DNA from: a bacterium
GTDB taxonomy: Bacteria > Patescibacteriota > Microgenomatia > Curtissbacterales > GWA2-41-24
DNA: 64,000 nucleotides
NCBI GenBank assembly: GCA_021813945.1
Contig: JAKAJD010000002.1
Coordinates: 33,343-97,342, forward strand
Direction: 5' to 3'
Under the pieces are notes generated by a model. That model saw only the letters and a list, made by a program, of their open reading frames with translations. It did not search any database and was not told the DNA's origin. How positions within the stretch are numbered: the first letter of the stretch is position 1; the number at the start of each line of letters is the position of its first letter. The position numbers and the translations under genes were made by a program. Positions 1 to 18,578 of the stretch are shown piece after piece.

Positions 1-201
1 CTGGCTGCGGCAAAAAAGCCACATGTTCAGTGACTTGAGCCGTCCATCGTCAAGGCCTGGCCTTGGCCTAAGCCGTATCTTGGAAAAAGGCCTGATCTTT
101 ATATCCAATTTATTTGACTTCACACTACGCTTCTGCCTAATATGGAATTAGAACTCGAGTTTCTAAAACGCCGAGCTTTCAAAGCGGAAGGACAGCCTGC
201 A

Positions 202-2673
202 ATGAAGCCCAAATTTAATCTGCCGTGGTTTTCTAAATACTTATTCTCATTCTTTCTCGTCGCCTTCGTTTTTCTTCTTGCCGGATATATCACAAAACCA
301 GCCAATGCCGCATTTTTTAACATAGTTGATCCGCCAACCTGGTCAGGCGACAATGTGACCTTTAAATGGGACAATCCTGGAACCTCAGCTGCAGTTTTAA
401 TCATTGTTGACTGGGACGACCCAACACATCCATCGGTGTATGACAGTGCAGCCAAAGGTGTATCTCTTTTGGGTAAAACTCAACTAACCGTTTCTACGAC
501 AGATTGGAATATCGCAGTTCACCCACCTGATGGTAGGTTTAAAGTTTCAATTGTCGTCGGTTTGACACTGGTTTCAAACGAAGTAATTTTTACGGTTCCT
601 GTGGTTGGCGCACCCTTATGCGCCTTTACATTCACCCCTACCTCGGTAGCACCAAGTGGACAATTCTTCATACAAAATATAAATGGTGTTGCCGGAAATC
701 CGTTTACTGCCGGATTAAAGGACAGCTCCGGTAGTATTTTATCTAATCCTCCTACTCAAAGTGGCAATTTCCCAGCTTCAAGCTTAACATTCACTGCCCC
801 CTCAAGTGCGGGAAATTATACAGTCTTCGTCCAAGATAATTCCACTAGCCCAGCTACTCAATGTGTAATCCCAGGCCTTTCAAGCAATATCTTAACCGTC
901 GGCTCTGCTTCTCCCCCACCCGGCACTGGCTGCAACATAGTGCCTGCCAATACCAGCTGGGACCCCTTAAAAGCCAGCGTTAACGGCTATGCAGTCACCT
1001 TCACCCTTCCAAAACCTTCAGATGGGATTGCCGGCATAGTCATCGAAAAAGACACAGACGGCACCGTCGCCCAGGATAGCGGCCCTTTGGCGTCTGGCAC
1101 TAACCAATGGATTTGGAACGCTCCAACCGGCTCAGACGGCTCGTATTGTGCCGCAATTTTTTGGACCACGTCTGCAGTTTCCACAGTCATACATTTTACC
1201 GTCCCAAGTGCTGGTAACGACACCTGTACCAGTAACGCTCTAAATTGGGTCAACGACGTCCGCTGCAAAGCTATAGGCGGCGGCTGGTTCGACAGTGATA
1301 TTTTTACCCTAGGCCAAGTTGGAGCCACATTTGACACTGGCAACGTCTTAGTCTGGGGTAAATCTCAACTTAATAGAAACATCAGTGATGCCACCCAAGG
1401 AAGAGGAGCACTTGCCTTAACCAGTAATTTGATTGCATCGCTGTATGCAGCTCCCCCGGCTTCCGGCGTCACTTATTTTGCCCAAAAAATCCAGGACTTA
1501 AACCCTGTCAGATCCGCTTATGCGGGTGCCGGCGGGCAATTCCCCGGTGGCATCGGCTATCAGGCCCTAGGACCGGTTCAAAAAATTTGGGTTGCATTTC
1601 GCAATATTTCCTATATCGGGTTCATAATAGTTTTTGTTGTCATGGGCTTTATGATCATGTTTCGGGCCCACATCTCCCCCCAAGCTGTTGCAACTGTCCA
1701 GGATTCTATCCCCAGAATCGTAATCGCGCTAATTTTGGTCACATTCAGTTACGCCATCGCCGGCTTTATGATCGATTTGATGTTTCTCTTTTTAAACATT
1801 GCAGTACAAGCTCTGGTTAGCACTCATTTGATTTCCAATGCTGACTTCGTTTTCAAAGATAACGTCTTCACGGTAATCTTTAGCAACTGGAAAGACGCGT
1901 TTGGAACCGTCTCTGATGCAATATCAAAAATAATCACTCAAACAATCGATCTTGGGATGTTCAATTTTGTATCTAAGGTGCTGGGATGGGCCGGTGGCAC
2001 ATTAGCAGGCTTGGTAGTTGGCATAGCCCTGCTCTTTATTATGTTCAGGGTATTTTTAATGCTTCTTATGGCCTACGTCATGATTATTCTTTTAACAATG
2101 TTCGCACCTTTCTTTTTCTTAATCCAGGCTCTTCCTGGCAATAACGGCGCCAAGGAGTGGTTTAAGCAAATGGCTTCCAATGTTGCCGTTTTCCCAGTTA
2201 CAGCTATGATGTTTATTTTTGCAGGCATCTTAAGTGGTATGACTGGTCTTGGCGGAACAGGATCCGGGGCAATTCAGCCAGCCCAAGTCGGCCAATTCCC
2301 GCTTTTGATTGGAGGATTGGATGCTGGCGCAATCGGAAATCTAATAGGTATTGGGTTTTTACTTATCACCCCCACTGCAGCCGACATGGTCAAAAACATG
2401 GTTGGCGGCGGCAGAGGCGGAGGCGGCGGTATGGGCAACATCGGCGCAGCGGCCCTTGGCGGGCTTGCTGGCGGCGCTGCAGTTGTAGGCGCAGCAGGCA
2501 GAGGAGCCGGCGGCGCACTAATCTCACGGGGCCCAATCGGCGGCTGGAGAAGAGCCCAAGAGGCAAGGCGTGGTGAAGAAGCGCAACGTACAGCTCACGC
2601 AGGCATTTACAGCAAAGAGTACCGTGAATGGCAAGAACAACTTGCCAAGACTAGAGCCAAAAAAGATGAGTAG
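202..2673 (+). CDS. VirB6/TrbL-like (PrgH/TcpH-type) polytopic membrane protein: N-terminal signal/TM, ~450-aa beta-rich extracellular domain, ~6 C-terminal TM helices, Gly-rich charged C-terminal tail
   Basis: Long ORF (table 142..2673). Start moved to the Met of MKPKF at 202, which has a GGAAGGA RBS 9 nt upstream and precedes the hydrophobic signal segment. The C-terminal half is multi-TM and Trp/Phe-rich like TrbL/VirB6. Family assignment is from architecture and genomic context only. Confidence 0.5.
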   Translation: MKPKFNLPWFSKYLFSFFLVAFVFLLAGYITKPANAAFFNIVDPPTWSGDNVTFKWDNPGTSAAVLIIVDWDDPTHPSVYDSAAKGVSLLGKTQLTVSTTDWNIAVHPPDGRFKVSIVVGLTLVSNEVIFTVPVVGAPLCAFTFTPTSVAPSGQFFIQNINGVAGNPFTAGLKDSSGSILSNPPTQSGNFPASSLTFTAPSSAGNYTVFVQDNSTSPATQCVIPGLSSNILTVGSASPPPGTGCNIVPANTSWDPLKASVNGYAVTFTLPKPSDGIAGIVIEKDTDGTVAQDSGPLASGTNQWIWNAPTGSDGSYCAAIFWTTSAVSTVIHFTVPSAGNDTCTSNALNWVNDVRCKAIGGGWFDSDIFTLGQVGATFDTGNVLVWGKSQLNRNISDATQGRGALALTSNLIASLYAAPPASGVTYFAQKIQDLNPVRSAYAGAGGQFPGGIGYQALGPVQKIWVAFRNISYIGFIIVFVVMGFMIMFRAHISPQAVATVQDSIPRIVIALILVTFSYAIAGFMIDLMFLFLNIAVQALVSTHLISNADFVFKDNVFTVIFSNWKDAFGTVSDAISKIITQTIDLGMFNFVSKVLGWAGGTLAGLVVGIALLFIMFRVFLMLLMAYVMIILLTMFAPFFFLIQALPGNNGAKEWFKQMASNVAVFPVTAMMFIFAGILSGMTGLGGTGSGAIQPAQVGQFPLLIGGLDAGAIGNLIGIGFLLITPTAADMVKNMVGGGRGGGGGMGNIGAAALGGLAGGAAVVGAAGRGAGGALISRGPIGGWRRAQEARRGEEAQRTAHAGIYSKEYREWQEQLAKTRAKKDE

Positions 2674-2675
2674 TT

Positions 2676-5600
2676 TCAGCGTGTTCCAGGTAAAGATTGT
2701 CTTGGCAACTGCTTAAAAAATTCCTTGACAGCTTCCCAAAAAGCCGAAAGCGGCGCATCAGCAACTAGGGTACCTTTAATGTCCCAAGCAATCCTGCGCC
2801 ACTTCTCTCCAAACCGTCTGATATACCTAAATGGCACTGTCCCGAAGAATTCTCCTAATGTTAGGCTTAATTCTTTATCCGTAAAAGGAACCTTCCCTCC
2901 AATTTTGGCAAAACCGAAAAACTTCGTCTTTTCCTTCTCTCCTTGTTTTCTTTCCATATCACCCTGTTGAATCATATCCTGTATGACTTGTTCACCACCG
3001 GCTGCGGTTAGATTAGGTCTGTCAAACAGATCACGCCGATACTTGCTCGCAAATCCCCAATGACCTCTGAATGCTAAAACTGCAAGTATGTGGTCTCTTG
3101 CAAACCTTGTTGAATATGCAAATCCTTTTACACGACTTATCATCGAAACCAGTTTGCTTTCAGTAGGATTACTCAGGTAGTCCTGAATCGTTTCCGGGCC
3201 TTCGGCTTCTAACCCTTTCTTAGCATCTGAAAAATAATCTATAAAACCGAACTTAGTCATCTCCTTATCCTTCGCCACCTGGCTAAACTTTGCCCCCTTA
3301 CTCGAAAAATACAGTGCCCCGTTCTTTATCATATCCATAATAACGACTGACTTCACCCAAGACACTGCTTCCTCATGATATGCCTTAGTGTCAATATCGT
3401 AATCCTTCATCATCTGCCTAATTCGCTGCTCAAAAACTCTTTTTTGATCAGGTGTCATAAACCTATCAGCCCATCGCACCATAAATGAAATCTGGGGCGT
3501 ATAGTAATGATGCTTGCCTGGAAACGCTTGTTTAAAAATCGTGTTCACTTCGTCCTGTTTAGCCCTTCCTCTATTTTCTACATCTTGGTTGAAGTGTGCC
3601 CAAAGGTCATCTCTCGCCCTTCCATGAAAAAGGTTTGTGCTGTGGTGAAATACTACACCGTCAAAATCATCATCAAACTTGCTTTTAGTGTCTTTCGAAT
3701 AAATCCTAATGTACTCCTGTGCACTCCACTGCATCATCCAAGTCCAATTAAATGCGTTATAATCAACAGAACCGAAAAAACCAACCTCCTCAAGCTCGTC
3801 AAAATCCGCATCCTTCAAATGCTCGAAAAATTTACGATACTCATCGCTATCTTCTTCGACAACGTCCTCCATGCTTGGATGGTACGTTCCCCTATAAACC
3901 TTAAGATCCATAGCTTTAAGCTTCTGAATAAGCCTTAACTGTTCTACTTCCCTCCAAACATCCAGATAAGATTTACCAACTCTAGTTTCCAAAAATTTAC
4001 GAATTTCACCCTCATCTTTCCCTAGTCTTCCCAAGAAATCGGCCAAGTCGCCCTTTAACCTCAATGCATGATCATTGCTAATCATCGCGTCGATATCATC
4101 TTGTTTCAAAGTTCCAAAAGCTCCATGGATTGTCCTCTTTTTGTGCCACTCATCAATCAATTCTCTTGTTTCTAAAATAAACTCCCGTCTTTCATCTACT
4201 AAACCTCTTTTTACCCCGCCTAACCTTGCCCAAACATCATCTACCCCGAGTGATTTCCCAGCCCACTTTCCACCAGGTTTTGTGTTGTCTGCAATCAACA
4301 TTGCGGTTCGTTTTCTGAAATAGTCCCTTAATTTATAGAACTCATATTCCCATTTGTCCCTATACGTTCTGCCATCAACCGTCACCGACTGCCTCCATTC
4401 ATCTTCAAGATCTCCAAAACCCTCTCTTGCCTTTATTCGCGACATTAAACTCGCGGAATAATTTCCATCCGTATCTATCGAGAGCCTCGTTAGCTCCTCA
4501 ATCATGTTCATCCTTATCCTGTCGTCATTTACATCCTTACTATAAATATCCTGCAAAGAGACATCATACGTATTTAGCCTTACGTATCTGGTTTTGCCAT
4601 CTTTACCCACCTCTTTAACATAAAACGGCCTCCCCCTTGTATCCTCACCAAATCTTTCAACATAATATTCAACGGTCGTTTCTTTCCTACCTTCAAAACC
4701 GTTGAGTACACCATCAACAGCCGCAGGATGCATATCTTTCTCCTCAAGCGTCATATAAACAGAAAGCATCAGCGCAGAAGCATCGATTCTATCAGCAAGC
4801 GCAGACCTTCTCTCTCTATCTTCTTTCGTCTCAGTTGGTAATACTTGAAGCATTGATTTGGCACTCTGAATCATAGGCCTTAACTCCTCTGGGCCCAGAT
4901 CAAGATCCTCCATAAAACTAAAGATACGTGCAATATTTTTAGGAACATCATCAGGATCGCCTGGAGATCTGAATATCTGGTGCTCTTCCAAAGCTCGCTC
5001 AAGTGTGTAATAGTACCGGCTGGCTTTCCACTGGCGAAGACCTATTGGGTCATCTTTATCTTTAACAGACCCTAAAATATCGGTAGAAGCCTCGTTCAAA
5101 TCACGCCAATCACTCAGCATCGCGCTTAAGTAATGGTTACCTTTTATGACCAAATCGCCAACCTTAGCCTTTTGGTTTTCTGTTGAGTCGTTTTCGTAAA
5201 TTTGTGTGTACCTGTTGTGAATTCTCCGATATAAGTGTGTATGTTCATCGTTCCAACTGATAAACTTGTTCGCGAAGTCAACTCCCCCAAGAGCTTCCAC
5301 AATTTTCTGCCTCCCACCAGCATCCTGAAGCCTATAGACATCGTTAATTGCCTTTGCCACTTCAAAAACATACCTTGCCGAAGCCATTTTTTGAGTTTCA
5401 GTACTGCCATCAGCATTTCTAAAAGGCACATCCACGAACATATCATCGGGGTTTACATGATCTATTTTTACAGCTTCTACGCGCTTAGTGGCCTCCTCAG
5501 CCATATCGGCAAACCTTTTCAATTCGCTGGCGCGATCAGCCCATTCGCCTGATGCCCTATCTTGCTTTAGCATATCTTTAATAAGAGCCTTTAAACCTGT

Positions 5601-6602
5601 GGTCACGGTAAGCAAATGCTCGGCCATTGGAGTTTCCCGATTACTCCTAGTCTCTAATTTCAAAAGTGAATCTACTTTTCTGGAAAGAATATCTCGCACT
5701 TCTGATACTTTAGGATCACTAGCCTCTAATGTTCCATCTAAAACTGCGTTATCGATTGCACTTTCTATATCCGGAAACTTTATTCTCTGAACTTCAAATG
5801 GCCTTAGTTTAGCGAGCTTAATCTCCCGTACGAACCTTTTGAATTTATCATCGATTGTGCTTAAATCTACTTCATCGATCTCCTCGTCAACAGTTTTGGT
5901 TCCACTAGCCCCTGGGCCACCAGTTTTTGGCTCCCAGTCACCTTTTCCTTTATAAGCAGACGAATATTTCTCAATCTTTTCCAGAGTTAAAAACTCACCA
6001 TCATCCAAATCTTTTGCACGCATGACTTCCTCACGTTTCAGTGCTTCTTCAACTCTCCGTTGGTCGCTTCCGGCAGCATATTTGAAATCATCATCAGCCG
6101 GGTCATCCACAACACTGTAATGGAAAATTATCTGCCCAATTGCCATAGCTTCTGTATCACTAATCTTGCCAATCTTCTCATCATCAAAAACTCCGCTTCG
6201 TTTAAGAAGTCGCCTGAAAAGATCCCTGTCTGTATCTGACTCCACGACTTCTTGCCCGTCTCGAATCCTGTTATAAGTAGTCGAGAGTGCTTGCGCCTCC
6301 GCAAATGAAACATGGGGATTCTGCGCAGAACCGGCTTCATTCATGCGCTTTAATACCTCTCGCAATCTTACAGGGTCGAGTGTCAGGCAGAAACTCTCCA
6401 CATCCATTCGCATATCTCCGGATGGCTTAAACCGGGTTTCCCTGGGCTTAGTCGCACTATTTTCTGGAGTAGGCCTTTCTAGTACCGCAACACCAGCCCC
6501 AACAGGCTGCTTTTCCACCACACCAGCATCAGGCATAACAAATATCCCTCCACCTTGAGCGTAGCTGGTTTGGGCAGCGTATGCAACATTTCTCTCGTTC
6601 AT
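2676..6602 (-). CDS. Large (1308 aa) highly charged soluble hypothetical protein; no TM, no Walker motifs, no recognisable catalytic motif
   Basis: Uninterrupted 3.9-kb ORF, divergent from the regulator gene. The composition is D/E/K/R/W-rich. I could find no known domain by eye. Confidence 0.6.
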   Translation of the reverse strand: MNERNVAYAAQTSYAQGGGIFVMPDAGVVEKQPVGAGVAVLERPTPENSATKPRETRFKPSGDMRMDVESFCLTLDPVRLREVLKRMNEAGSAQNPHVSFAEAQALSTTYNRIRDGQEVVESDTDRDLFRRLLKRSGVFDDEKIGKISDTEAMAIGQIIFHYSVVDDPADDDFKYAAGSDQRRVEEALKREEVMRAKDLDDGEFLTLEKIEKYSSAYKGKGDWEPKTGGPGASGTKTVDEEIDEVDLSTIDDKFKRFVREIKLAKLRPFEVQRIKFPDIESAIDNAVLDGTLEASDPKVSEVRDILSRKVDSLLKLETRSNRETPMAEHLLTVTTGLKALIKDMLKQDRASGEWADRASELKRFADMAEEATKRVEAVKIDHVNPDDMFVDVPFRNADGSTETQKMASARYVFEVAKAINDVYRLQDAGGRQKIVEALGGVDFANKFISWNDEHTHLYRRIHNRYTQIYENDSTENQKAKVGDLVIKGNHYLSAMLSDWRDLNEASTDILGSVKDKDDPIGLRQWKASRYYYTLERALEEHQIFRSPGDPDDVPKNIARIFSFMEDLDLGPEELRPMIQSAKSMLQVLPTETKEDRERRSALADRIDASALMLSVYMTLEEKDMHPAAVDGVLNGFEGRKETTVEYYVERFGEDTRGRPFYVKEVGKDGKTRYVRLNTYDVSLQDIYSKDVNDDRIRMNMIEELTRLSIDTDGNYSASLMSRIKAREGFGDLEDEWRQSVTVDGRTYRDKWEYEFYKLRDYFRKRTAMLIADNTKPGGKWAGKSLGVDDVWARLGGVKRGLVDERREFILETRELIDEWHKKRTIHGAFGTLKQDDIDAMISNDHALRLKGDLADFLGRLGKDEGEIRKFLETRVGKSYLDVWREVEQLRLIQKLKAMDLKVYRGTYHPSMEDVVEEDSDEYRKFFEHLKDADFDELEEVGFFGSVDYNAFNWTWMMQWSAQEYIRIYSKDTKSKFDDDFDGVVFHHSTNLFHGRARDDLWAHFNQDVENRGRAKQDEVNTIFKQAFPGKHHYYTPQISFMVRWADRFMTPDQKRVFEQRIRQMMKDYDIDTKAYHEEAVSWVKSVVIMDMIKNGALYFSSKGAKFSQVAKDKEMTKFGFIDYFSDAKKGLEAEGPETIQDYLSNPTESKLVSMISRVKGFAYSTRFARDHILAVLAFRGHWGFASKYRRDLFDRPNLTAAGGEQVIQDMIQQGDMERKQGEKEKTKFFGFAKIGGKVPFTDKELSLTLGEFFGTVPFRYIRRFGEKWRRIAWDIKGTLVADAPLSAFWEAVKEFFKQLPRQSLPGTR

Positions 6603-6647
6603 GTTGCACGTAGATTAACCTAGGCATAAAATGTGTGCTTGATATTT

Positions 6648-6667
6648 AGCTAACAGGAAGCTAACAG
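6648..6667. promoter_or_regulatory. Tandem direct repeat AGCTAACAG-GA-AGCTAACAG overlapping the -35 position of a TATAAT (6682..6687) upstream of the regulator gene; candidate operator
   Basis: Read directly from the sequence. The same GCTAAC core recurs at 8138..8246. Confidence 0.3.
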
Positions 6668-6717
6668 TTCACCCAGTTAGATATAATAGGGATATGTATT
6701 TTGCAACAACGGGGTAA

Positions 6718-7974
6718 ATGAAAATATTTGAATCAGATTTTCCTCCTGATTACCGGTCGGCCGAAATAAAAGCAATTTTGGCCTATATAACAACAGGCAA
6801 ATTCTGCCAGCTTATTTGCATACCAGGGGCCGGCAAGGCAACTATCCTTCGGCTTCTTGCCCATAACCGCAAGCTTTTAAAATCTCACCTCGGCGAAAAA
6901 GAAAAGGGCCTTCGTTTTGTCTATATCAACTTTTTCGAACTCACAAATTTTACAGAAGCCGAAATCATAAAGTTGCTGCTAATCGGTTTGGATGAAAAGT
7001 TCCAAAACTCAGACGACCCACTTCTTCTTGGTAGAGATCTTCATGAGGCAGTAAACCGTCTTTCCCAAAATGGCCAAACCATTATTTTTCTTTTTGACCA
7101 TTTCGACGAACACCAAAACCGGCTACCGCATACTTTTTTCCAAATGCTAAAAAGCCTGAGAAACTTGGCAAAATTCAAGTTTTCCGTTGTTTTCGCAACA
7201 AGAAGAGATCTTGCCGGTCTTGTCGATGAAGACATTCTCAAAGATTATTGGGATTTTTTTGTTGGCAATACTGTTTACTTAAAAGTCTACGACAAGGTTG
7301 CCGTAGAGTATTTATTCACACAAATTGAAAACGTTTTCGGCCAAAAAATTAAAGCCGAACAAAAAACGCAGATCACAAAATTAACAGGCGGCCATGCAAA
7401 GCTGACAAAAATAATCTCCGAGCTCGTTCTTGGTAAGGCTGTCAAACCCCAAACAGAAAATCTCCTAAAAGAGACCCCGGTCATGGCTGCTCTTTATGAA
7501 ATCTGGCTGTTTTTAACAAGTTCGGAACAACAGCTACTATCAAAAATCTCAGAAGGTAAAACTTCAGATCAAATAGATGAAAACCTTATCAAGTTAGACC
7601 TGGTTTCTTATCAAAACAAATTCACCATTCCATTACTGGAAGATTTTGTAAAAAGTGCCAAATTAAATGTCCAAACGAAAATTATCTTTGACCCCCAAAC
7701 CAATGAAATTAAAAGGGGTGAAAGTATCATCTCCGAAATTCTCTCCGCCCAAGAATATCGCTTGCTTAAATTTCTAATCGAAAATCCTAATAAAGTAATA
7801 GGTCGAGACGAAATAATTAAAGCGGTTTGGCCGCAAACCGAAGTTACAGAAGCGATAAGCGACGAGGCCATAGATCAAATGGTTTTTCGACTTAGAAAGA
7901 AGATAGAGGACGAGCCACAAAAACCCATCCACATTCAAACCGTAAAGGGCATAGGTCTCAAATTCGAACCCTAG
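6718..7974 (+). CDS. Transcriptional regulator: N-terminal P-loop ATPase (GAGKAT, Walker B-like FLFDHFDE) fused to a C-terminal OmpR/PhoB-type winged-helix DNA-binding domain
   Basis: The C-terminal ~100 aa (EYRLLKFLIENPNKVIGRDEI...VFRLRKKIE...IQTVKGIGLKF) match the trans_reg_C fold pattern. The N-terminus has a Walker A. Confidence 0.65.
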   Translation: MKIFESDFPPDYRSAEIKAILAYITTGKFCQLICIPGAGKATILRLLAHNRKLLKSHLGEKEKGLRFVYINFFELTNFTEAEIIKLLLIGLDEKFQNSDDPLLLGRDLHEAVNRLSQNGQTIIFLFDHFDEHQNRLPHTFFQMLKSLRNLAKFKFSVVFATRRDLAGLVDEDILKDYWDFFVGNTVYLKVYDKVAVEYLFTQIENVFGQKIKAEQKTQITKLTGGHAKLTKIISELVLGKAVKPQTENLLKETPVMAALYEIWLFLTSSEQQLLSKISEGKTSDQIDENLIKLDLVSYQNKFTIPLLEDFVKSAKLNVQTKIIFDPQTNEIKRGESIISEILSAQEYRLLKFLIENPNKVIGRDEIIKAVWPQTEVTEAISDEAIDQMVFRLRKKIEDEPQKPIHIQTVKGIGLKFEP

Positions 7975-8137
7975 CAAAATTTGTCGTCAGAATCATTAAC
8001 AAAGGTCAGGCCTTTGTTGGGATATTCATAGCCTAAGACCTGACCTTGAGATAAAGACTGGTCGGTCTCCATCAGCGATAGTTACCAAAACATATCCCAC
8101 CATATCATCAAATTTCTGTGAAAATCGCAAACTTTTG

Positions 8138-8246
8138 AAGCTAATGAGGCCACTTCTCGCACTTGATTTCATATGTTATGGTGGCATAGAAGCTAACCTA
8201 ACGCAAAAATTGCACCGCATTAATCTTTTGTCGTTAGTCGTTAGAC
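8138..8246. promoter_or_regulatory. Cluster of GAAGCTAA(C/T) / CTAAC / GTCGTTAG repeat motifs upstream of the PrgI-like/VirB4 operon
   Basis: GAAGCTAAT at 8138, GAAGCTAACCTAACGC at 8190, and tandem GTCGTTAGTCGTTAG at 8231. GTTAG is the reverse complement of CTAAC. Confidence 0.3.
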
Positions 8247-8252
8247 CTAAAA

Positions 8253-9803
8253 ATGGAGCAGCATCCTGTCCCGCAGCATATAGCGGCTTTTGAATTTAAA
8301 CTATTTGGCAACCTTACTGCAAGACAGTTTATAACTCTCATCTTTCCCCTTTCAATAGCAGCTATAACCTATTTCTCTTCACTTCCTATATTGGTGCGTA
8401 TACCCTTAGCTTTGACAATAGGCATCGTTGGCGCTTTTATTGCCCTTGTTCCTGTCGGCGGTAGACCTTTTGACAAATGGATTTTCGCCTTCATAAAAGC
8501 TGTGTCAGCCCCGACACAAAGAGTCTGGATAAAAGAAAAGCGGATCCCTGGATTTTTAAGTATTGTCACCAAACCTCCCCAAAAAGAGGTCAAAATTCCC
8601 CAGGAAATCACCGAAAAAGGTAGAGAAAGAATGATTGCTTATTTACGTTCTCTTCCAAAAGAAAATGTCACTTCTTTAGACATCAAGGAACAACTGGCCC
8701 TAGATAGGCTTGGCTTTCCGGCAAGCCAGTATGAAGGCAACTTGCCGCCCGCAATTCTTTGGCCCGTTAGCCCTTGGGAAGATAAATACGTAGCAATAGG
8801 GCAAGGCGAATCAGGTTATCTTTTGGGTTCTTTGCCACAAGTTGCTGGTCCGCTTGAGGAAATTCCCCAAAGCCAGACAGCTCCGGTTTTAGAACCCGAA
8901 CCAAGACCCCAAATAACATCCCAACAGGCTGCCCCATCAGCTGTTACGCGTGCAAAAATCCAGCCGCAAGCAAAACAGTTTACTCTTTCTGGCCTCGAAA
9001 AGCGCCTGGATCATAAACCACAGGAAATAATTGATCTTGCCAGACCCAGCGCCCATCTTGCCTCGGAAACAAACTATTCGCTCGACAACGTAATTCCCAT
9101 CAAAATCTCCGAGGGCCAATTTCGCCTTGTGCACGGAGTCGGCAACACCAGGGTCAGAAAGCTTCACTTTGCACCTCCAGCAAATTTTGATCTTTCTAAA
9201 CTACCAATTCGCGGAGAGCGCAAATTCGACATTTCAGACGAACTTAAAAAAAGATATCATTTCGAAGACGATTCTCCAGCAGTAGTTTTACCTATTCAAC
9301 AAGAAAAGATTCAAGCTGCACCGCAAGCAGTTGATGTTCCCGAGGCAAACCCAATACCCTTACCCAAACCAGAAGCCGTCCACTTACCCGACGAGCATCA
9401 TGCCAAACTAGCACCCAAACAGGAGGAAAAACCCAAAGTGGAAAAAAGTGAATTTTCTCAATTTTCTATATCGGATAAAGATCAAAACCAGCAAACTGGA
9501 AACGTCCAGCAAGCTCAAATCATTCCCCTAACTGACAAGCCAAACATCCTTTCGGGACTCGTAACAGACGAAAAAGGAAGCCCCATCGAAAGTGCCGTTC
9601 TGGTTGTCCGCGACGAAAGCGGAATACCGGTCAGAGCCTTAAAAACCAACAAGCTTGGCCAATTTCTTTCCGCCACCCCGCTTTCCAGCGGTAGCTACAC
9701 AATTGAGGCAGAAAGTGATCTTGCCTCCTTTAAACCAGTCTCAATACATTTAACCGGCCAAATTCTCGCTCCGATTGGAGTCAAAGGAGAAAGGATAAAC
9801 TAA
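8253..9803 (+). CDS. PrgI/VirB3-like N-terminal two-TM domain fused via a Pro/Gln-rich linker to a C-terminal carboxypeptidase-regulatory-like (CarboxypepD_reg / Cna-B-like) beta-sandwich domain
   Basis: The N-terminus (FEFKLFGNLTARQFITL...GGRPFDKWIFAF) matches the PrgI-family pattern. The C-terminus (GLVTDEKGSPIESAVLVV...GSYTIEAE) matches CarboxypepD_reg. Confidence 0.5.
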   Translation: MEQHPVPQHIAAFEFKLFGNLTARQFITLIFPLSIAAITYFSSLPILVRIPLALTIGIVGAFIALVPVGGRPFDKWIFAFIKAVSAPTQRVWIKEKRIPGFLSIVTKPPQKEVKIPQEITEKGRERMIAYLRSLPKENVTSLDIKEQLALDRLGFPASQYEGNLPPAILWPVSPWEDKYVAIGQGESGYLLGSLPQVAGPLEEIPQSQTAPVLEPEPRPQITSQQAAPSAVTRAKIQPQAKQFTLSGLEKRLDHKPQEIIDLARPSAHLASETNYSLDNVIPIKISEGQFRLVHGVGNTRVRKLHFAPPANFDLSKLPIRGERKFDISDELKKRYHFEDDSPAVVLPIQQEKIQAAPQAVDVPEANPIPLPKPEAVHLPDEHHAKLAPKQEEKPKVEKSEFSQFSISDKDQNQQTGNVQQAQIIPLTDKPNILSGLVTDEKGSPIESAVLVVRDESGIPVRALKTNKLGQFLSATPLSSGSYTIEAESDLASFKPVSIHLTGQILAPIGVKGERIN

Positions 9804-9804
9804 A

Positions 9805-10707
9805 GTGGCTCCTTCTGCCCAAAAAATTAAGGCTTCAACCCAAGAGCATTTGGATATTGAAGACATAACCGAAGACTTTGTAATTTTAAAAACCGGCTGG
9901 GTTGCTATGGTCCTTTCCACAACCGCAGTTAATTTTGACATCCTCTCCGAAGCCGAGCAAGATGCGACTATTTACGCTTATGGTGCCCTTTTAAATTCCC
10001 TAACCTTCCCCATCCAGATTTTAATCCGTTCCAAAAGAGCAGATATAACAGCCTATTATCAACATTTAGTCGAAGCGGAAAGAAACCAGCAAAACCCTGA
10101 TCTCAAACGCCAAATTCAAAAATATATGGACTTCATCCAGTCTACCGTTCAGCAAAAAACCATTCTTGACAAGCGCTTTTACCTTATACTTAGCTTTTCC
10201 CCAATCGAACTCGGCTTAACTGGCATCAAAAAACCTGCAAAAACCAGCAACAAAGAGCAACAAGTTCAAGACGCTAAAGTTGCCCTAGCGCCAAAACGCG
10301 AACATTTAATTAAACAAACGGCCCGCCTAGGTCTTACTACCAAACAGCTCACCACAAAAGAGTTAATTGAACTGTTTTATGACATTTACAATCCTGCTCC
10401 CACTGGCACCCAAAGAGTTATTCTGGACTCCGCCTCCTACACAACCCCCATGGTCGAGCCAGCCGTTGAAGTGCCAAGCCCCGCGCCGAATCAGCCACCA
10501 CCAACTTATACTCAGGAACCTTCCCAGGCACCTATACCACAACCAGCTTATGCCGATTCTCTGCCTAATATTAACGGGCAACAATCAGCCCCTTCACAAA
10601 TGGAGGCTCTGGAAAACCTCAAGGCGGCAACCGCCAAAGCCGCGCAATCAATACGCGGAGAACAGCAAATAAGTCCCAACCAAACAAACCAAACAATCCA
10701 GCAATGA
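9805..10707 (+). CDS. Hypothetical T4SS-associated protein, translationally coupled to VirB4 (ATGA overlap); Pro-rich C-terminus
   Basis: ORF lying between the PrgI-like and VirB4 genes. The N-terminal segment (DIEDITEDFVILKTGW...NFDILSEAEQDATIYAYGALLNSL) loosely resembles the N-terminal region of VirB4/TraC proteins. Confidence 0.45.
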   Translation: MAPSAQKIKASTQEHLDIEDITEDFVILKTGWVAMVLSTTAVNFDILSEAEQDATIYAYGALLNSLTFPIQILIRSKRADITAYYQHLVEAERNQQNPDLKRQIQKYMDFIQSTVQQKTILDKRFYLILSFSPIELGLTGIKKPAKTSNKEQQVQDAKVALAPKREHLIKQTARLGLTTKQLTTKELIELFYDIYNPAPTGTQRVILDSASYTTPMVEPAVEVPSPAPNQPPPTYTQEPSQAPIPQPAYADSLPNINGQQSAPSQMEALENLKAATAKAAQSIRGEQQISPNQTNQTIQQ

Positions 10708-12578: not shown

Positions 12579-12665
12579 CTTTAGATTTACTCCCCAGCCT
12601 TTTTCATCATTATTAAGTCTACTTTGCTTTAAGTTAGAAGTTGCTAGTATATTTAATTAGGCCCC

Positions 12666-14669
12666 ATGTCTGTTTTGGATAAAATCAAAAAACTTAAAAA
12701 TCTTAAAAACCTCAACCCCGAAAGCCAAGTATCGCAGCTTGCCAAAAAAGCCGCAATGTATCTATCTCTTGGTGTCTCAGCCGCATTTTTAGCCGCCTTG
12801 GCATATTTCGCCCACCTCGGAAAAGTTGCTTTCTTTGGTTTCAAAATCGGCGCAACTGCAGGTGGTACGGCAGGCGCAATATGGGGTGGATATATAGGTA
12901 TTCAAGTTGGAATCGCATTAGCACCATACACCTTTGGCATTTCATTGATAGTCGCCCCGCCCCTTGGAGTACTTATTGGTGCCATAGGTGGTGCCACCTT
13001 GCTGGGAATAGCCGGCGGTCTGATCGCCCTCGGCCTCGATCAAGGCTCTGCAGGCCTGGTTTCAACCGGAGTCGGAGCGGGTGTGGGAGGCATCATTGGC
13101 ACCTACGTAGCAGGCGCATTTATTTCGTTTGCAATTGGAGCGTGCGCAGCTACAGTCTTTGGGTGCCTTTTAGTGCCTATCGCAGTGGTATCCGCCCCAA
13201 TCATAATTGTAACCTTCAGTGCTATAGGAGCTGGTGCGGGTTACCTAATTGGCAACTATGTAATTGATCCTGTCAAATCTTATATTGGTGGAGTCTCGAT
13301 AAGTGGTTCCGCCTCAGGCTTCTTGTCTTGGCTTGGCGGGGGAATTACTGGATTGGGATCTTGGGCTGTGGGCGGTCTCTTCAGCCTTGGTGGCTTAGCA
13401 GTAGACGGTATAACCAGCATTGGTAGTAAGCTCTTGGGAACGCTTTCCACCAGCGCAGGTCCTCTTGCTGGGAAATTAGCGGGTATCTCAGTAGGGACAG
13501 CTTTCACATCGGCAGCTACACTGAGCTTACTTCAAACAGGGGTCCTAACCCCTGGGAAATTCGCAACAACCCAGACGGATATATCTAAACCGGCTGGGGC
13601 CAACCAATATGTAACCGTCACTAAAACCGCCAACCCTACTACAATCTCCAATTCAAGCTTACCAACCGACATCAACTACTTGGTTACAGTAAAGGTCAAT
13701 TCTTACGCCTTAACCAACGTCGTCTGCACCGATGTTACAACATTGAAAAAGAGTGATGGAACTACTCAAAACTTAACTAATACTTTAATAGGGCCCCTTT
13801 GCCCTTCACAACTTAACCCTGCCCAAGTTCTTACATTTAATCTTTCAACTCATGCGGACAACACTCCCGACTTTATCAATTCGACAGTTTCCAACACTTT
13901 CACCATTAACTTTGACGTCACCGGTGGAGGGGCTCCACCTCCCACGGGAGGCGGCGGCCCATGCAGTGCAAACAGCGGTTTTAATGCTCTCCTGCCTAAC
14001 CCTATACCACCAAGCGTCGGCGCCACATCACCCAGCTCTTTGCCTCCAGACCCTGCAATCATCCAGGCAGCCCAGCAAGCAACTTTGCAAACTGGCGTAC
14101 CTTGCGAAATGCTAGTCGGCATTCAATACCGCGAAGCCGGCTGGGATGCCAATAGCTCGTTTTTAAGCGGAACCACATTGTGTTCGTCAGGAAATTTTGC
14201 CATATGCAAACCGGAACCCAACATTACGTCTTCATCAGCATGTACCGGTTATGGCGGTACCTGGTACTCTGGCGGGTGCTATTTTACAAGTTTAAATCAA
14301 ACCGCTTTAGCATCAGCAAGTTACATTCTGGGCGAGGTCTCGTCACTTACTCGCGGGCCCGAACGCCCACCAAAAAATTACGATGAAATGATAGGAGCAA
14401 TGTCATATTATAATGGCGGCGGCAATGCTAATTGCGGAGCCGGGGTACCTTACACGGGGCCTTGCCCTGGCCCTATTGGGATTGACGATCCTTATGCAGT
14501 CAATCATTTTGATTCTGACCACGCAACAATGTACCTTCTCTATTGCAGCCAATATACCGACGCCAGCGGAGTTGTCCATGGGATACCTTGCGACCCTCCC
14601 CGAGTCTTAACAACAGACGGTGCGGCAACCGCAGCCAAAGAGTATTATTTAAAGATAGGCGGTCACTAG
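12666..14669 (+). CDS. Polytopic membrane protein with an extreme Gly-zipper N-terminal region (~280 aa, many GxxxG) and a Cys-rich extracellular C-terminal domain; possible cell-wall-lytic or adhesin-like function
   Basis: The composition comes from the translation. The C-terminal segment VPCEMLVGIQYREAGWD is weakly lysozyme/SLT-like but not convincing. Confidence 0.5.
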   Translation: MSVLDKIKKLKNLKNLNPESQVSQLAKKAAMYLSLGVSAAFLAALAYFAHLGKVAFFGFKIGATAGGTAGAIWGGYIGIQVGIALAPYTFGISLIVAPPLGVLIGAIGGATLLGIAGGLIALGLDQGSAGLVSTGVGAGVGGIIGTYVAGAFISFAIGACAATVFGCLLVPIAVVSAPIIIVTFSAIGAGAGYLIGNYVIDPVKSYIGGVSISGSASGFLSWLGGGITGLGSWAVGGLFSLGGLAVDGITSIGSKLLGTLSTSAGPLAGKLAGISVGTAFTSAATLSLLQTGVLTPGKFATTQTDISKPAGANQYVTVTKTANPTTISNSSLPTDINYLVTVKVNSYALTNVVCTDVTTLKKSDGTTQNLTNTLIGPLCPSQLNPAQVLTFNLSTHADNTPDFINSTVSNTFTINFDVTGGGAPPPTGGGGPCSANSGFNALLPNPIPPSVGATSPSSLPPDPAIIQAAQQATLQTGVPCEMLVGIQYREAGWDANSSFLSGTTLCSSGNFAICKPEPNITSSSACTGYGGTWYSGGCYFTSLNQTALASASYILGEVSSLTRGPERPPKNYDEMIGAMSYYNGGGNANCGAGVPYTGPCPGPIGIDDPYAVNHFDSDHATMYLLYCSQYTDASGVVHGIPCDPPRVLTTDGAATAAKEYYLKIGGH

Positions 14670-15256
14670 TGAAACTAAGTCTTACATCGGTCAAAAAAGA
14701 AACTCTCCCTTTAGCTATTTTGGCAACCATTATTATCATTCTATTGGGCTTTGTAATTACCCAGCAAATACTGAAAAACAGACCGTTCCAAACTGCACAA
14801 TTACCTCCCCCCATCAAACTTCAGCCCGTTGTTAATGGAAAATTTGACACAAATGCTCCAATAAGCCAAAAATCTAAAGCTTCGGTTGAGCTTTTAAAAC
14901 AACATCTGCCTTACAAAGCAGATTTTGTTAGTACAACAGGAGATAAAATAACCTACACCCTGTATGGCAAAACTATAGACCCTTATACATTGTATGTGGA
15001 TATATCCAATATAGATTTTTTAATACCTTCAACAAATCCCAATTATCCCAAAACTATTCAAGATTTCCGTGACACAGCTAATCATATTTTCGAATATATG
15101 AAACAATATAACGCCAACCCGTCAGATGTTTTTATTTCCTGGGGCAGCCAAGCATACATTCAAAACAACGCAGAGTTGTGGCTTACTGTTTCTGACAAAT
15201 TTCCACCCGTGGTAAAAAAGGATAACCAATATATTTTTGAAACACCGCCGAAATGA
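14669..15256 (+). CDS. Bitopic membrane protein (N-terminal TM, ~160-aa ectodomain); candidate VirB8-like subunit (speculative)
   Basis: The table ORF at 14543 overlaps the preceding gene. A GTG at 14669 overlaps the upstream TAG by 1 nt and precedes the TM helix LPLAILATIIIILLGFVI. Confidence 0.4.
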   Translation: MKLSLTSVKKETLPLAILATIIIILLGFVITQQILKNRPFQTAQLPPPIKLQPVVNGKFDTNAPISQKSKASVELLKQHLPYKADFVSTTGDKITYTLYGKTIDPYTLYVDISNIDFLIPSTNPNYPKTIQDFRDTANHIFEYMKQYNANPSDVFISWGSQAYIQNNAELWLTVSDKFPPVVKKDNQYIFETPPK

Positions 15257-15867
15257 TAAGAACGACTTTCTATATTCAGAAATTAAGATTAATAATCGCT
15301 ATTATCGACGCAATAATCATATTAATAATGTTCCCTTATACGGTTTTTGCCGCCAGCTTTTCCGGTTCCGCAACGGCCGTGACCATAATCGGCACCTCAT
15401 CATCTCAATGCCCACAAAGCTGGCCTTTGGCTCATGGTTACATCACTCAAGGACCTCAAGGAACAACAAGTCATTACCGGCTATATCCAAATGAGCAAGC
15501 AATTGACATCGGCGGCAATCCTACAGATACTCCTGCTTTCGCCACATTTTCTGGAACTGTGCTTGTTGCCCAAACCGACTATACCCCCGGTGTTGGTTAT
15601 GGCAGATATGTCGATATTCAAGGCACTTGCAATGGCGCTGCCTTTACAGGCCGCTGGGCTCACTTAGACTATATCGATGGAGCGGTCACAGTTGGAAGTA
15701 AGGTCAATTTCGGACAACTAATAGGAGGTATTGACAACACAGGTAATAGTGAGGGCACGCATTTGCATTATTCTTTTCTAGGTCTAACAATGGGAACACC
15801 ATACATCCCTCAAAATCCGGCTTTTTCGACGTGTAATTCAAACGTTGCTTGTAATATTAATTGGTAA
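15253..15867 (+). CDS. Secreted peptidase M23 (LytM-type) family protein
   Basis: Signal peptide present. M23 motifs are HYRLYPNEQAIDIGG and the C-terminal NSEGTHLHYSF (HxH). Confidence 0.8.
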   Translation: MIRTTFYIQKLRLIIAIIDAIIILIMFPYTVFAASFSGSATAVTIIGTSSSQCPQSWPLAHGYITQGPQGTTSHYRLYPNEQAIDIGGNPTDTPAFATFSGTVLVAQTDYTPGVGYGRYVDIQGTCNGAAFTGRWAHLDYIDGAVTVGSKVNFGQLIGGIDNTGNSEGTHLHYSFLGLTMGTPYIPQNPAFSTCNSNVACNINW

Positions 15868-16916
15868 ATATGTTTGACTTAACTACAATTCAAAAAAATA
15901 AATTTAAAATAGCTGCAGGGATTTTCCTGGTCCTAGTCTTAATCTTTATAAATTTGGCAATCTTAGGGAAAATACAAAGCAAAAGTAAAAAGACCTCAGA
16001 ACAGCCCCAGTCCCCAAAAATTCCAACGATTTACCAAAATCCAGCACAAAAGCAACCAAAACGCTTTGATTTTTCAACTCTGAATCAAATTGCATACCCG
16101 CAAAATCTTCCGGTATATACTGCACAGAAAAATCAGATCGACCTAAGTAAAGCGCAAGCCATTGCGGCTAAATTTTCCTTCACTGGAGAGCCATCGAAAG
16201 TCATTAACAGCACAGCAGACGGAACACAGTTTAGCTGGTTTGACAAAAATCGCATCTTGGCAATAAGCCAGACAACAATTAGGTTCGACGACCAAACTCA
16301 AAACTCTTCCAACTCGCTAGCAGAGGAAGACCTTAAAAATAAAGCCTCAGATTTTATTAATTCTTTACCCTTAATTGGGTCAGGTCTCGTATTAAATGAT
16401 AAAAAAACCGCCTACTACGCTTACAGCAACTCCAAGCTTATCAGTGCTTCATCTTTTGCTGATTCACAGTATGTCCAGTTTTCTTTTGACAGAAATCTGT
16501 CGAATAATCCAATATACAATTCGGCCTTAAATCCCTCTTACTTAACAATTTCAATCAAAAAAGATGGAAACATCAATCAACTTTACACTAAAATATTTTC
16601 AGATTTTACCGCCAATGGTCAATACCCGCTCAAAACATTGGATGAAGCAAAAAAGGAGATAGAAAATGGGCAAGGTAAAATTGTTAATACCTTCATGCCA
16701 GATAAAAACGGCCAAGCATTACAGCTCTATCAACTCCAGCCAAACGATATTTCAATTGCCAAATTTAACAACGTGGCCCTTGCCTATTTTTTGCCAGTCT
16801 CAACCTCAGAAAATATTGTGCCAATATTTGTTTTTACCGGCGATTTCCTAACCTACTCAAACCAAACAGGCAAAATAGTACTCTACTTACCGGCTATCCA
16901 AACCTCTCAACCTTAA
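15861..16916 (+). CDS. Bitopic membrane protein (N-terminal TM, ~310-aa ectodomain), hypothetical
   Basis: ORF with an N-terminal TM helix (IAAGIFLVLVLIFINLAILG). No domain recognised. Confidence 0.45.
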   Translation: MVNMFDLTTIQKNKFKIAAGIFLVLVLIFINLAILGKIQSKSKKTSEQPQSPKIPTIYQNPAQKQPKRFDFSTLNQIAYPQNLPVYTAQKNQIDLSKAQAIAAKFSFTGEPSKVINSTADGTQFSWFDKNRILAISQTTIRFDDQTQNSSNSLAEEDLKNKASDFINSLPLIGSGLVLNDKKTAYYAYSNSKLISASSFADSQYVQFSFDRNLSNNPIYNSALNPSYLTISIKKDGNINQLYTKIFSDFTANGQYPLKTLDEAKKEIENGQGKIVNTFMPDKNGQALQLYQLQPNDISIAKFNNVALAYFLPVSTSENIVPIFVFTGDFLTYSNQTGKIVLYLPAIQTSQP

Positions 16917-17201: not shown

Positions 17202-17213
17202 ACAAATTCTATT

Positions 17214-18353: not shown

Positions 18354-18578
18354 AATTGTTGGTGGACAGACCCTGGGGATTATAACACCTTCATTATAAA
18401 CACCTTAAACATTCAAATCTATACATACTAAGCAATATTCTAAAACGTAGTTGTAGTTTAATATATGTTGATAAGTTTAAACCTATTAATAAATTGTGCG
18501 CAGACTTATGTTCAAAAATGTGTGTAAAATTTTCAATTTAAAGTTAAATATTCGAAAAAAAGTGTGGAGAAAATACCT
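18354..18578. other. Candidate oriC / DNA-unwinding element: AT-rich dnaA-dnaN intergenic region with DnaA-box-like 9-mers
   Basis: TGTTGATAA (18467..18475), TGTGGAGAA near 18565, TTATAAACA near 18395, and very AT-rich runs. Confidence 0.5.

Follow-up and report, generated by a model that had tools for sequence, protein, structure and literature searches.

The window, as we call the whole 64-kb stretch of DNA analyzed here, carries a T4SS locus in which a single large gene is encoded on the strand opposite to its neighbors (Table 1). An earlier note on this DNA had placed the gene between a VirB6-like gene and a divergent regulator and had called it the largest of the window; indeed, its open reading frame lies between these two, is uninterrupted and is the longest present. 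The polytopic partner gene on one side is convergent with the large gene, their stop codons being 2 nt apart in the window, and a homologue of it lies downstream of the large gene in 21 of 24 loci, the 3 remaining contigs ending first. Its product has no Pfam match, and we call it VirB6-like from its topology and position. None of the roughly 48 window proteins scanned, all large ORFs included, has a T4CP domain, and no relaxase is encoded in the 64 kb; a coupling protein may lie elsewhere in the genome. Rfam and tRNA scans of the window returned nothing, and scans for promoter and terminator consensus sequences gave matches at or below chance level.

Table 1. Coordinates of the features of the T4SS locus and of the large gene within the window
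Feature	Position	Strand	Details
Polytopic partner gene, probably VirB6-like	142..2673	+	843 aa, ~8 hydrophobic segments
Full ORF of the large protein	2676..6602	-	1308 aa, stop codon included
Probable true CDS of the large protein	2676..6536	-	Start at Met23, ATG at 6536; 1286 aa
C-terminal tail	2679..2906	-	Residues 1233-1308; PFRxxRQ, then hydrophobic/amphipathic helix, then K/R/Q-rich end
Most conserved C-terminal domain	2898..4049	-	Residues 852-1235
Core with conserved predicted fold	2907..5648	-	Residues 319-1232; mostly alpha-helical, small beta hairpins
N-terminal variable module (N-module)	5649..6602	-	Residues 1 to ~318; charged, poorly conserved, exchanged separately from the core
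Shine-Dalgarno sequence GGTGGAGGG	6546-6554	-	9 nt upstream of the Met23 ATG
Operator-like tandem direct repeat TGTTAGCTTCCTGTTAG	6650..6666	-	11-bp period, then TAAATAT; in the divergent intergenic region
Divergent regulator	6718..7974	+	AAA-type N-terminal domain and OmpR/PhoB-type winged helix (Trans_reg_C)
PrgI/VirB3-like gene	8253-9803	+	Pfam PrgI
TrsD/TraC-N-like gene	9805-10707	+	NCBIfam TrsD
VirB4 ATPase gene	10704-12578	+	Pfam P-loop_TraG
Further locus genes (synteny)	12666..16916	+	667-aa multi-TM, 195-aa, M23 peptidase (15253-15867) and 351-aa single-TM proteins

The passages cited here from three sources (PMC10633639, PMC12102498, PMC12857230) describe the T4SSs of Patescibacteria as widespread, chromosomal and often adjoining the replication origin, as lacking a relaxase and a nearby coupling protein, and as having no substrate assigned in the literature; in a Saccharibacterium, the one species tested, the system is essential, for epibiotic growth. 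Like the systems in the cited sections of Quinonero-Coronel et al. (2025) and Wang et al. (2023), the present locus has PrgI/VirB3, TrsD and VirB4 genes, a VirB2-like pilin array, an M23/lysozyme-type hydrolase and adjacent dnaA/dnaN, with neither a relaxase nor a nearby T4CP. Those sections do not mention the family described below and assign no substrate.

Proteins identical to that of the window exist in public assemblies under both gene calls (P0067, 1308 aa; P0001, 1286 aa). The true start is probably Met23: its ATG is preceded by a Shine-Dalgarno sequence, most family members begin with MP[D/E] at this position, and in several loci a stop codon stands immediately before the equivalent Met. 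The earlier note described the protein as unusually rich in Asp, Glu, Lys, Arg and Trp. This holds for the charged residues, with D+E+K+R at 33.3% against a mean of 20.4% in the 38 other window proteins, and for Asp at 9.6%, both window maxima, but not for Trp (1.61% against a mean of 1.26%), which 14 of the 38 equal or exceed. Its statements that there is no TM segment and no repeat architecture were borne out: the best 19-residue Kyte-Doolittle mean is 1.04, below TM level, there is no signal peptide, and no internal repeats were found within the protein. The statement that P-loop and HxH motifs are lacking is right as to function, but not to the letter. A Walker-A-like string, GGKWAGKS (residues 777-784), and a single HxH, HTH (residues 454-456), are present, but neither is conserved, not even in a 56%-identical homologue. 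The family has no invariant His or Tyr. Two known classes were rejected on this basis: a coupling protein or VirB4-VirD4 ATPase, as GGKWAGKS is not conserved in the closest homologues and there is neither a P-loop Pfam match nor a TM segment; and a conjugative relaxase (HUH/MOB, Rep_trans), as neither a catalytic Tyr with a His-triad/HUH motif nor a Rep_trans fold was found.

The large protein is not an orphan in the strict sense in which the earlier note used the word. A word-index homology search retrieved just 3 close relatives, whether the query was the full protein or a 51-sequence alignment, but an exhaustive HMMER profile search revealed a family of about 65 cluster representatives at the 50% identity level, nearly all of 1000-1400 aa; in a scan of GTDB genomes, patterns from the close relatives gave no matches and a 13-sequence alignment did. 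The family is still without annotation, the sole name that its members carry being "hypothetical protein". Scans of the large protein and of family members against Pfam, NCBIfam, PHROGs and PADLOC gave no family match: the sole PHROG match was at chance level, and the PADLOC defence profiles matched nothing in the window protein and gave a chance-level SspC match (E 0.0023) in one family member. The PDB, searched by sequence with the large protein itself and then with the family profile, returned only low-complexity or coiled-coil matches to the charged N-terminal part. Homology to a housekeeping or other known family was looked for by sequence and by fold, and none was found; the exhaustive profile search, whose matches are nearly all family-sized, linked the family to no other proteins by sequence. 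Within the window the large protein matches only itself, with no paralogues or silent cassettes.

The family occurs only in an uncultivated sub-lineage of Microgenomatia type (CPR, ultra-small bacteria), and no copies were found on IMG/VR viral contigs or PLSDB plasmids. All 24 loci recovered have T4SS genes, in conserved order, wherever the contig flanks reach; homologues away from T4SS genes were looked for and none was found. The gene is intact, full-length and in the same position in at least 20 loci, and only one copy, in L002, is frameshifted.

Modelling from the family alignment gave a confident and consistent predicted fold. The N-terminal third is low-complexity. For the core, no related solved structure was found, and the weak fold matches of the protein are generic alpha-solenoids. 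The fold is likely to be new, and the protein may also be a new enzyme. Some 40 invariant or near-invariant residues are kept across the family at about 20% identity. Those invariant in the C-terminal domain are E1009-x-R1011-G1012, D1122, D1126, Q1140, R1166 and R1169; R1127 and S1164 are near-invariant, and a PGKHH motif is also present. The pattern of invariant polar residues, E-x-R-G, D-x3-D, Q and R-x2-R, would suggest a catalytic or phosphate-ligand-binding site. The tail carries PFRxxRQ as a near-invariant basic motif (R1259, R1262). Mean net charge in the family is -23 over the whole protein and +4 over the last 50 aa (+6 in the window protein). In 17 of 50 members, the helix that follows the motif attains a 17-residue hydropathy of 1.6 or more. 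Model confidence is low in the tail (block-mean pLDDT 42-71).

The product of the divergent regulator gene matches Pfam Trans_reg_C (1.1e-19) and, under the curated cut-off, AAA_22 (2.3e-05), and the gene adjoins the large gene in L001, L002, L009 and L014. The operator-like repeat between the two genes occurs once in the window, where 0.04 matches are expected by chance, is conserved in alignment A9 and, across loci, is found only where the regulator gene exists. In one sub-lineage, a dedicated AAA+/winged-helix regulator would bind the upstream tandem repeat and control the large gene.

The large protein is the fastest-diverging product of the locus, with 22-56% identity to the window protein, whereas the same comparison gives 80-93% for VirB4, 62-85% for TrsD, 42-87% for the pilins and 32-63% for the PKD surface protein. 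Between L002 and L014, VirB4 is 98% identical, TrsD 97% and PrgI 89%, but the core of the large protein just 33-45%. When pairwise identities are compared with those of VirB4, the Spearman coefficient is -0.34 in the core, as against +0.77 in TrsD; the loci behind these identity statistics, 9-24 in number and metagenomic, are not independent of one another. Between L001 and L014, the N-module and the adjacent genes (VirB4 through the regulator) have dS values of 0.44-0.78; in the core, synonymous sites are saturated (pS 0.80) and dN is 0.67. Mosaicism is also apparent at the nucleotide level, with sharp boundaries: L001 and L014 share the N-module (83%) but not the core, whereas for the window and L001 it is the core that is shared (73%), and not the N-module, so that the two parts have opposite affinities. 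Because the core is saturated while its flanks are not, and because N-module and core differ in history, the sequence comparison indicates that old core alleles have been swapped by recombination. In the VirB6-like partner, the TM core is mostly 76-100% identical between L002 and L014, and variation lies in the last ~80 aa and the first ~250 aa. The partner's C-terminal tail has been replaced along with the core of the large protein, which may reflect mere physical linkage. A diversity-generating retroelement target was rejected: there are no TR/VR-type direct repeats of at least 30 nt in window positions 1-20000 and no RT among the neighbors. An Avd-like gene occurs in 3 relatives only.

Together, these data lead us to propose, with a probability of roughly 0.45, that the large protein is a host-facing substrate exported by the T4SS, either an effector or a host-specificity determinant. 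It would be a lineage-specific, T4SS-dedicated protein that the cell synthesizes in its cytoplasm and that the neighboring T4SS most likely exports, to act at or inside the host (prey) cell. Its ~320-aa N-terminal module, variable and charged, would be joined to a ~900-aa core with a conserved, previously unseen alpha-rich fold, and the basic tail with its helix would serve in recognition by the machine, in targeting to a membrane, or in both. The proposed recognizer is VirB4 or the VirB6-like channel, as no coupling protein gene lies nearby. Divergent core alleles would be maintained and exchanged because the protein meets a variable host target, the exchange proceeding by homologous recombination in conserved flanks between otherwise nearly identical T4SS loci.

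Several observations are consistent with this proposal: the T4SS association in 24 of 24 loci, with no viral or plasmid copies found; cytoplasmic synthesis, as expected of a protein with no signal peptide or TM segment; the fastest divergence in the locus, with incongruence to VirB4, old alleles and mosaic boundaries; the predicted fold and polar residues kept at such low identity; a basic C-terminus on an acidic protein, with its conserved motif and low-confidence model; a repeat that accompanies only the regulator gene; and, from the literature cited above, an essential Patescibacteria T4SS for which neither relaxase, nearby coupling protein nor substrate is known. The substrate or effector idea of the earlier note is thereby supported in part and indirectly, the new points being the exceptional variability with its swapped alleles, the basic conserved tail and the dedicated regulator. 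Against export stand the absence from the window of a coupling protein to recognize a C-terminal signal, the single copy at a fixed position in each locus, which fits a machine component better than it does most effectors, and the lack of any recognizable toxin, enzyme or immunity gene signature; moreover, the hydrophobic C-terminal helix of about one-third of members could anchor the protein to the producer's own membrane. A polymorphic toxin was rejected, as both modules vary while the extreme C-terminus is conserved, no toxin domain was recognized, and the downstream neighbor is always the VirB6-like gene rather than a small immunity gene.

The single copy, always convergent with the polytopic partner, would also fit a cytoplasmic, membrane-docked accessory T4SS subunit, which we consider unlikely, if the best of the rival explanations. 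Such a subunit would be a large alpha-helical platform whose C-terminal helix ties it both to the inner side of the membrane and to the VirB6-like partner's C-terminal tail. It might gate or recruit substrates in place of the missing coupling protein, although the lack of an ATPase motif rules out a true coupling protein. Alternatively, it might correspond to the hydrophilic domains of "extended VirB6" proteins, whose role is not known according to a review (PMC12857230). A basic stretch followed by a hydrophobic or amphipathic helix is typical of tail anchors or in-plane anchors, the partner's tail is replaced together with the core, and the weak fold matches are generic alpha-solenoids. Large hydrophilic, partly alpha-solenoid-like regions are likewise found in the extended VirB6/TraG family (F TraG, SXT TraG, Rickettsiales VirB6 paralogues) and in SEML1_0011 and SEML1_0013, essential S. 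epibionticum T4SS proteins with ARM-repeat-like hydrophilic domains at an equivalent locus position; SEML1_0011, between PrgI/VirB3-like and VirB6-like genes, lies where the large gene does. There, as proposed here, a hydrophilic region goes with a polytopic channel protein and variable regions set partner specificity. The large protein differs in being a separate polypeptide without TM helices, and in the exhaustive profile search it had no sequence relatives beyond its family. Further, the most variable protein of the locus, with ancient swapped alleles, is not what one would expect of a subunit in contact with a VirB4/TrsD/PrgI machine that is 80-98% conserved, and the many invariant polar residues resemble an active or ligand site more than a scaffold.

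In F and SXT, exclusion specificity maps to a variable region of TraG, a VirB6-family protein. By analogy with the TraG-Eex pairs of these elements, the variable core and the variable VirB6-like tail might decide which partner cells are engaged or spared, making the large protein a self/non-self or exclusion-type specificity determinant. Allelic diversity that is maintained and exchanged between otherwise near-identical loci, and the co-variation of the adjacent VirB6-like tail with the core, would suit this role, but we regard it as improbable: no candidate cognate exclusion or immunity gene adjoins, the large protein resembles TraG C-terminal regions in neither sequence nor fold, and Patescibacteria T4SSs, in the passages cited of PMC12102498, lack relaxases and are apparently not conjugative.

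Variability without functional meaning, in a fast-drifting gene under low constraint, is very improbable. Large alpha-helical proteins do tolerate many substitutions and the N-terminal third is low-complexity, but the gene is maintained intact and in place across loci with that one frameshifted exception, its fold is predicted confidently and consistently with some 40 residues held, and the confinement of dS saturation to the core points to allele exchange and not just relaxed constraint. Least probable of all is an alternative raised in the earlier note, a novel DNA-processing enzyme in the role of the missing relaxase; in the form considered here it would supply relaxase or coupling functions in DNA transfer or uptake. 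The absence of both genes from the window and the many invariant Arg residues, potential ligands of phosphate backbones, would allow it. It is disfavored by the lack of invariant Tyr or His and of a conserved HxH or P-loop, by the strongly acidic character of the protein, and by its hypervariability and allele swapping, features unexpected in an enzyme that has to match a cis-acting site.

Returning to export toward the host, a more specific and more tentative version of that reading would make this the first identifiable Patescibacteria T4SS substrate or host-specificity factor, a new-fold enzyme injected into or presented to the host bacterium. If so, an arms race of ultra-small epibionts with their hosts would have left its record in the ancient, recombining allele classes, which could serve to predict the host parasitized by each lineage. 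In any case, a locus-constant protein with a new predicted fold and invariant polar residues is the hot spot of allelic replacement in a highly conserved machine, making it a concrete candidate for what the T4SS handles and for how host specificity evolves.

Two known T4SS substrates offer instructive parallels. Like the large protein, CagA of the Helicobacter pylori cag T4SS is a soluble protein of ~1,200-1,300 aa encoded inside its T4SS locus, mostly alpha-helical, with a structure unlike that of other proteins and no signal peptide, and it has diversified rapidly under recombination. A basic C-terminal region is needed for translocation of CagA and is suggestive here. We detected no similarity between the two in sequence or fold, and CagA structures are absent from the PDB matches listed. 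Moreover, CagA has a eukaryotic target and depends on both the chaperone CagF and the coupling protein Cag-beta, whereas here the host is presumably bacterial or archaeal, there is no coupling protein gene nearby, and export is a proposal. The bacteria-killing effectors of the Xanthomonas T4SS (X-Tfes) are substrates, bearing a C-terminal XVIPCD domain, of a system aimed at other bacteria. They have recognizable hydrolase or lipase domains, adjacent immunity genes and VirD4 binding, none of which was seen for the large protein; what the X-Tfes do have in common with this candidate substrate is a variable functional part combined with a conserved C-terminal region, which in the X-Tfes serves recognition.

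The large open reading frame proved to be real, with the 1308 codons that the earlier note assigned to it, and it is the longest in the window. Its product, the large protein, has no hydrophobic segment near transmembrane level, and window positions 1-20000 hold no notable direct or inverted repeats, in keeping with the described lack of membrane segments and repeat architecture. It is also the most highly charged protein of the window, as had been claimed: D+E+K+R make up 33.3% of it (Asp 9.6%), against a mean of 20.4% in the 38 other proteins. The supposed richness in Trp did not hold, at an ordinary 1.6%. Strings of the P-loop and HxH kind, said to be absent, do occur (GGKWAGKS, residues 777-784; one HxH, 454-456), but neither is conserved. 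Because both are lost in a 56%-identical homologue, we regard them as chance matches and rejected them as a Walker A and a functional motif.

The gene map bears out the reported placement of the large gene between a VirB6-like gene and a divergent regulator. Beyond the regulator follow, in order, genes for a PrgI/VirB3-like protein, a TrsD-like protein, VirB4, a 667-aa multi-TM protein, a 195-aa protein, an M23 peptidase, a 351-aa protein, DnaN and DnaA. In the passages covered of PMC12102498, Patescibacteria are described as having a chromosomal, origin-proximal T4SS that lacks a relaxase; this locus is that system, and the direct adjacency of dnaN and dnaA agrees with the origin-proximal placement given there. 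The rest of the window, which is housekeeping, holds no relaxase or coupling protein. Past the window edge, the same public contig carries genes for a 415-aa protein and a 1026-aa PKD protein and a T4SS_pilin gene array. The 415-aa gene adjoins the VirB6-like gene and recurs in all loci whose contigs extend that far (26-62% identity); its product has no Pfam domain and no obvious signal peptide in its first 50 residues, and may serve the system as another soluble partner or as a chaperone. Elsewhere in the window, three further genes for cell-wall-active or surface proteins may be linked to an epibiotic lifestyle.

Coordinates of features in the window and in loci carrying homologues of the large gene (L numbers)
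Feature	Record	Position	Strand	Remark
VirB6-like polytopic gene, 843 aa	window	142-2673	+	~8 hydrophobic segments; convergent with large gene, stops 2 nt apart
Large gene, 1308 aa	window	2676-6602	-	
Met23 ATG	window	6536		probable start
Shine-Dalgarno sequence	window	6546-6554	-	GGTGGAGGG
22-codon in-frame leader	window	6537-6602	-	
Tandem direct repeat	window	6650-6666	-	TGTTAGCTTCCTGTTAG, then TAAATAT
Regulator gene	window	6718-7974	+	Trans_reg_C winged helix, weak AAA_22 match; divergent from large gene
dnaN and dnaA	window	17214-19937	-	
Second M23 peptidase gene	window	43374-44135	-	
PEGA+SH3 protein gene	window	44356-45186	+	
GH18 chitinase-like gene	window	53451-54680	-	
415-aa protein gene	L003	16499-17746		just outside window, beyond position 1
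Repeat	L001	9903-9919		
Repeat	L002	9871-9887		
Repeat	L009	9939-9955		
Repeat	L014	9937-9953		
23S_rRNA_IVP gene	L001	9410-9784		
23S_rRNA_IVP gene	L002	9446-9826		
23S_rRNA_IVP gene	L010	5591-5947		
VirB4 gene with intein	L010	1896-5522		LAGLIDADG endonuclease
Split VirB4 gene	L007	4240-6139		393 + 271 aa
Frameshifted large gene	L002	10001-13844		808 + 477 aa
PhdYeFM antitoxin/PIN toxin pair	L012	338-987		

The large protein had been called an orphan; it belongs instead to a family. A word-index search returned nothing beyond the protein and two relatives. When 1.84 billion representatives were searched exhaustively with a HMMER profile, 65 proteins emerged (49 with E < 1e-30), nearly all of 1000-1430 aa. 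They are named solely 'hypothetical protein' or 'uncharacterized protein', from Candidatus Curtissbacteria, and one GTDB locus likewise derives from a Curtissbacteria MAG. Pfam, NCBIfam, PHROG, PADLOC and PDB sequences revealed no relationship, either for the window protein or for those members that were tested. Exact look-ups, GTDB genomes and JGI metagenomes together supplied 24 independent loci. The VirB6-like gene lies convergently downstream in 21, the remaining three contigs stopping before it, and every contig long enough to show them has PrgI, TrsD and VirB4 upstream; the linkage persists even in members of just 20-25% identity (L009-L012). The earlier note had held that homologues lacking T4SS genes would count against its reading. 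With these conserved neighbours, and with no homologue found on viral contigs or plasmids, none of that kind emerged: all 24 loci keep T4SS genes as far as their contigs reach.

Within this constant setting the large protein varies greatly. In all related loci VirB4 keeps 80-93% identity to that of the window; from this, together with the Curtissbacteria names and MAG, we infer that the family is restricted to a fairly narrow Microgenomatia-type lineage. TrsD is 62-85% identical, PrgI 48-76%, the transmembrane core of the VirB6-like protein 49-57%, pilins 42-87% and the PKD protein 32-63%, compared with just 22-56% for the large protein. Loci L002 and L014 share VirB4 at 98%, TrsD at 97% and PrgI at 89%, whereas the cores of their large proteins (residues 319-1232) are only 33-45% identical. 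Core similarity is decoupled from the T4SS machinery: in 36 pairs of loci, core identity gave a Spearman coefficient of -0.34 with VirB4 identity, where TrsD gave +0.77 and PrgI +0.53.

Nucleotide comparisons show sharp mosaic boundaries. Between L001 and L014, dS is 0.44-0.78 for the adjacent VirB4, TrsD, PrgI and regulator genes and 0.64 for the N-module (residues 1 to ~318), while the core is saturated at its synonymous sites (pS 0.80, dN 0.67). Identity is 75-90% over the flanks and the first ~950 nt of the large gene; beyond that the two are unalignable, up to ~200 nt inside the 3' end of the convergent VirB6-like gene. For the window and L001 the pattern is reversed, with 73% nucleotide identity in the core and an unalignable N-module, implying independent exchange of the two parts. 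So recombination moves old, divergent core alleles between near-identical loci. The C-terminal tail of the VirB6-like protein is replaced along with the core of the large gene. In the VirB6-like proteins of L002 and L014, the transmembrane core is mostly 76-100% identical, the N-terminal ~250 aa 16-46% and the C-terminal ~80 aa 17-36%. A DGR was rejected as the source of variability, no DGR signature (template/variable repeats) having been found in window positions 1-20000.

An AlphaFold2 model from a 51-sequence family alignment gave a mean pLDDT of 88.2 and pTM of 0.85 for residues 300-1308, mostly helices with several small hairpins; a linker (~845-851) and the tail beyond ~1233 are of low confidence. 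The most conserved domain (852-1235), modelled by itself, reached pLDDT 89.4. Foldseek against the PDB returned no match below E 0.04 (TM ~0.1), and within these limits the predicted fold is new relative to the PDB. Conservation is concentrated in loops: W525, N677, E1009-x-R1011-G1012, PGKHH, D1122, D1126-R1127, Q1140, S1164-x-R1166-x-x-R1169, and R1259 with R1262. Among these, W525, N677, E1009, R1011, G1012, D1122, D1126, Q1140, R1166 and R1169 are invariant, and R1127 and S1164 nearly so. Net charge averages +4 over the final 50 residues (+6 for the window protein), against a whole-protein average of -23. The tail carries a near-invariant PFRxxRQ and then a helix; in 17 of 50 members this helix is strongly hydrophobic, and the others have an amphipathic or aromatic one.

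Its unchanging position and strict linkage show that the large protein works with the T4SS, and the retained fold and polar invariants show a defined biochemical role. Ancient alleles kept and exchanged in an otherwise conserved machine are the mark of a product that confronts a variable external partner. We give a probability of about 45% to the most economical mechanism, in which the T4SS exports the large protein and it faces the host as an effector or as a specificity determinant; its conserved C-terminal tail would serve in machine recognition or membrane targeting. The substrate or effector proposed in the earlier note is thus our preferred reading, from linkage and allele exchange, with export a putative step. 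The main rival is a cytoplasmic platform that docks at the membrane and binds the VirB6-like tail. It accounts well for gene position and the C-terminal tail, and the platform could be akin to the ARM-like hydrophilic domains found in SEML1_0011 and SEML1_0013 of S. epibionticum; the reading accounts poorly for the hypervariability, and we think it unlikely. An exclusion-type specificity role seems improbable. The family alignment contains no invariant His or Tyr, and the DNA-processing relaxase substitute once offered as an alternative is disfavoured as highly improbable.

In the passages covered of PMC10633639 and PMC12857230, the Patescibacteria T4SS is essential in Southlakia epibionticum and has no known substrates, and the covered passages of this literature do not mention the large-protein family. 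We class the large protein as a T4SS-associated substrate or accessory protein of a new family with a predicted new fold, and the family is unusual in its evolution by allele swapping. The closest functional analogue is CagA, which shares large size, a fold of its own, locus encoding, shaping by recombination and a basic C-terminus, but no homology.

Upstream of the large gene, the divergent intergenic region contains a tandem direct repeat, unique in the window (0.04 chance matches expected). Across loci it takes the form TGTWAK-N5-TGTTAG with an 11-bp period, and TAAATAT comes after it. Of 26 loci, just the six records with an AAA/Trans_reg_C regulator gene have the repeat, in each case immediately upstream of the large gene. 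The repeat is probably the operator of this regulator, which suggests dedicated transcriptional control of the large gene in the regulator-bearing sub-lineage.

Several relatives show local peculiarities. A small 23S_rRNA_IVP gene (Avd-like four-helix bundle) directly adjoins the large gene in L001, L002 and L010, among whose called genes there is no reverse transcriptase. The L010 VirB4 contains an intein, VirB4 is split in the Curtissbacteria locus L007, and the L002 large gene is frameshifted. In L012, a contig of just 5 kb, a toxin-antitoxin pair directly upstream of one of the most divergent family members stands where T4SS genes are usual.

Finally, the annotated start of the large protein, Met1, looks doubtful. 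Met23 has a Shine-Dalgarno sequence upstream at the correct distance, most relatives start MP[D/E] at its position, some with a stop codon right before, and public gene calls of both 1286 and 1308 aa exist. The leader preceding Met23 (MNEQILAYGG..YAQGEG..IMP) is conserved in the window, L001, L002 and L014, more divergent in L009 and L011, and replaced by a stop codon in L006-L008, L010 and L012; it may provide an alternative start, encode a leader peptide or represent conserved 5'-UTR/RBS sequence.
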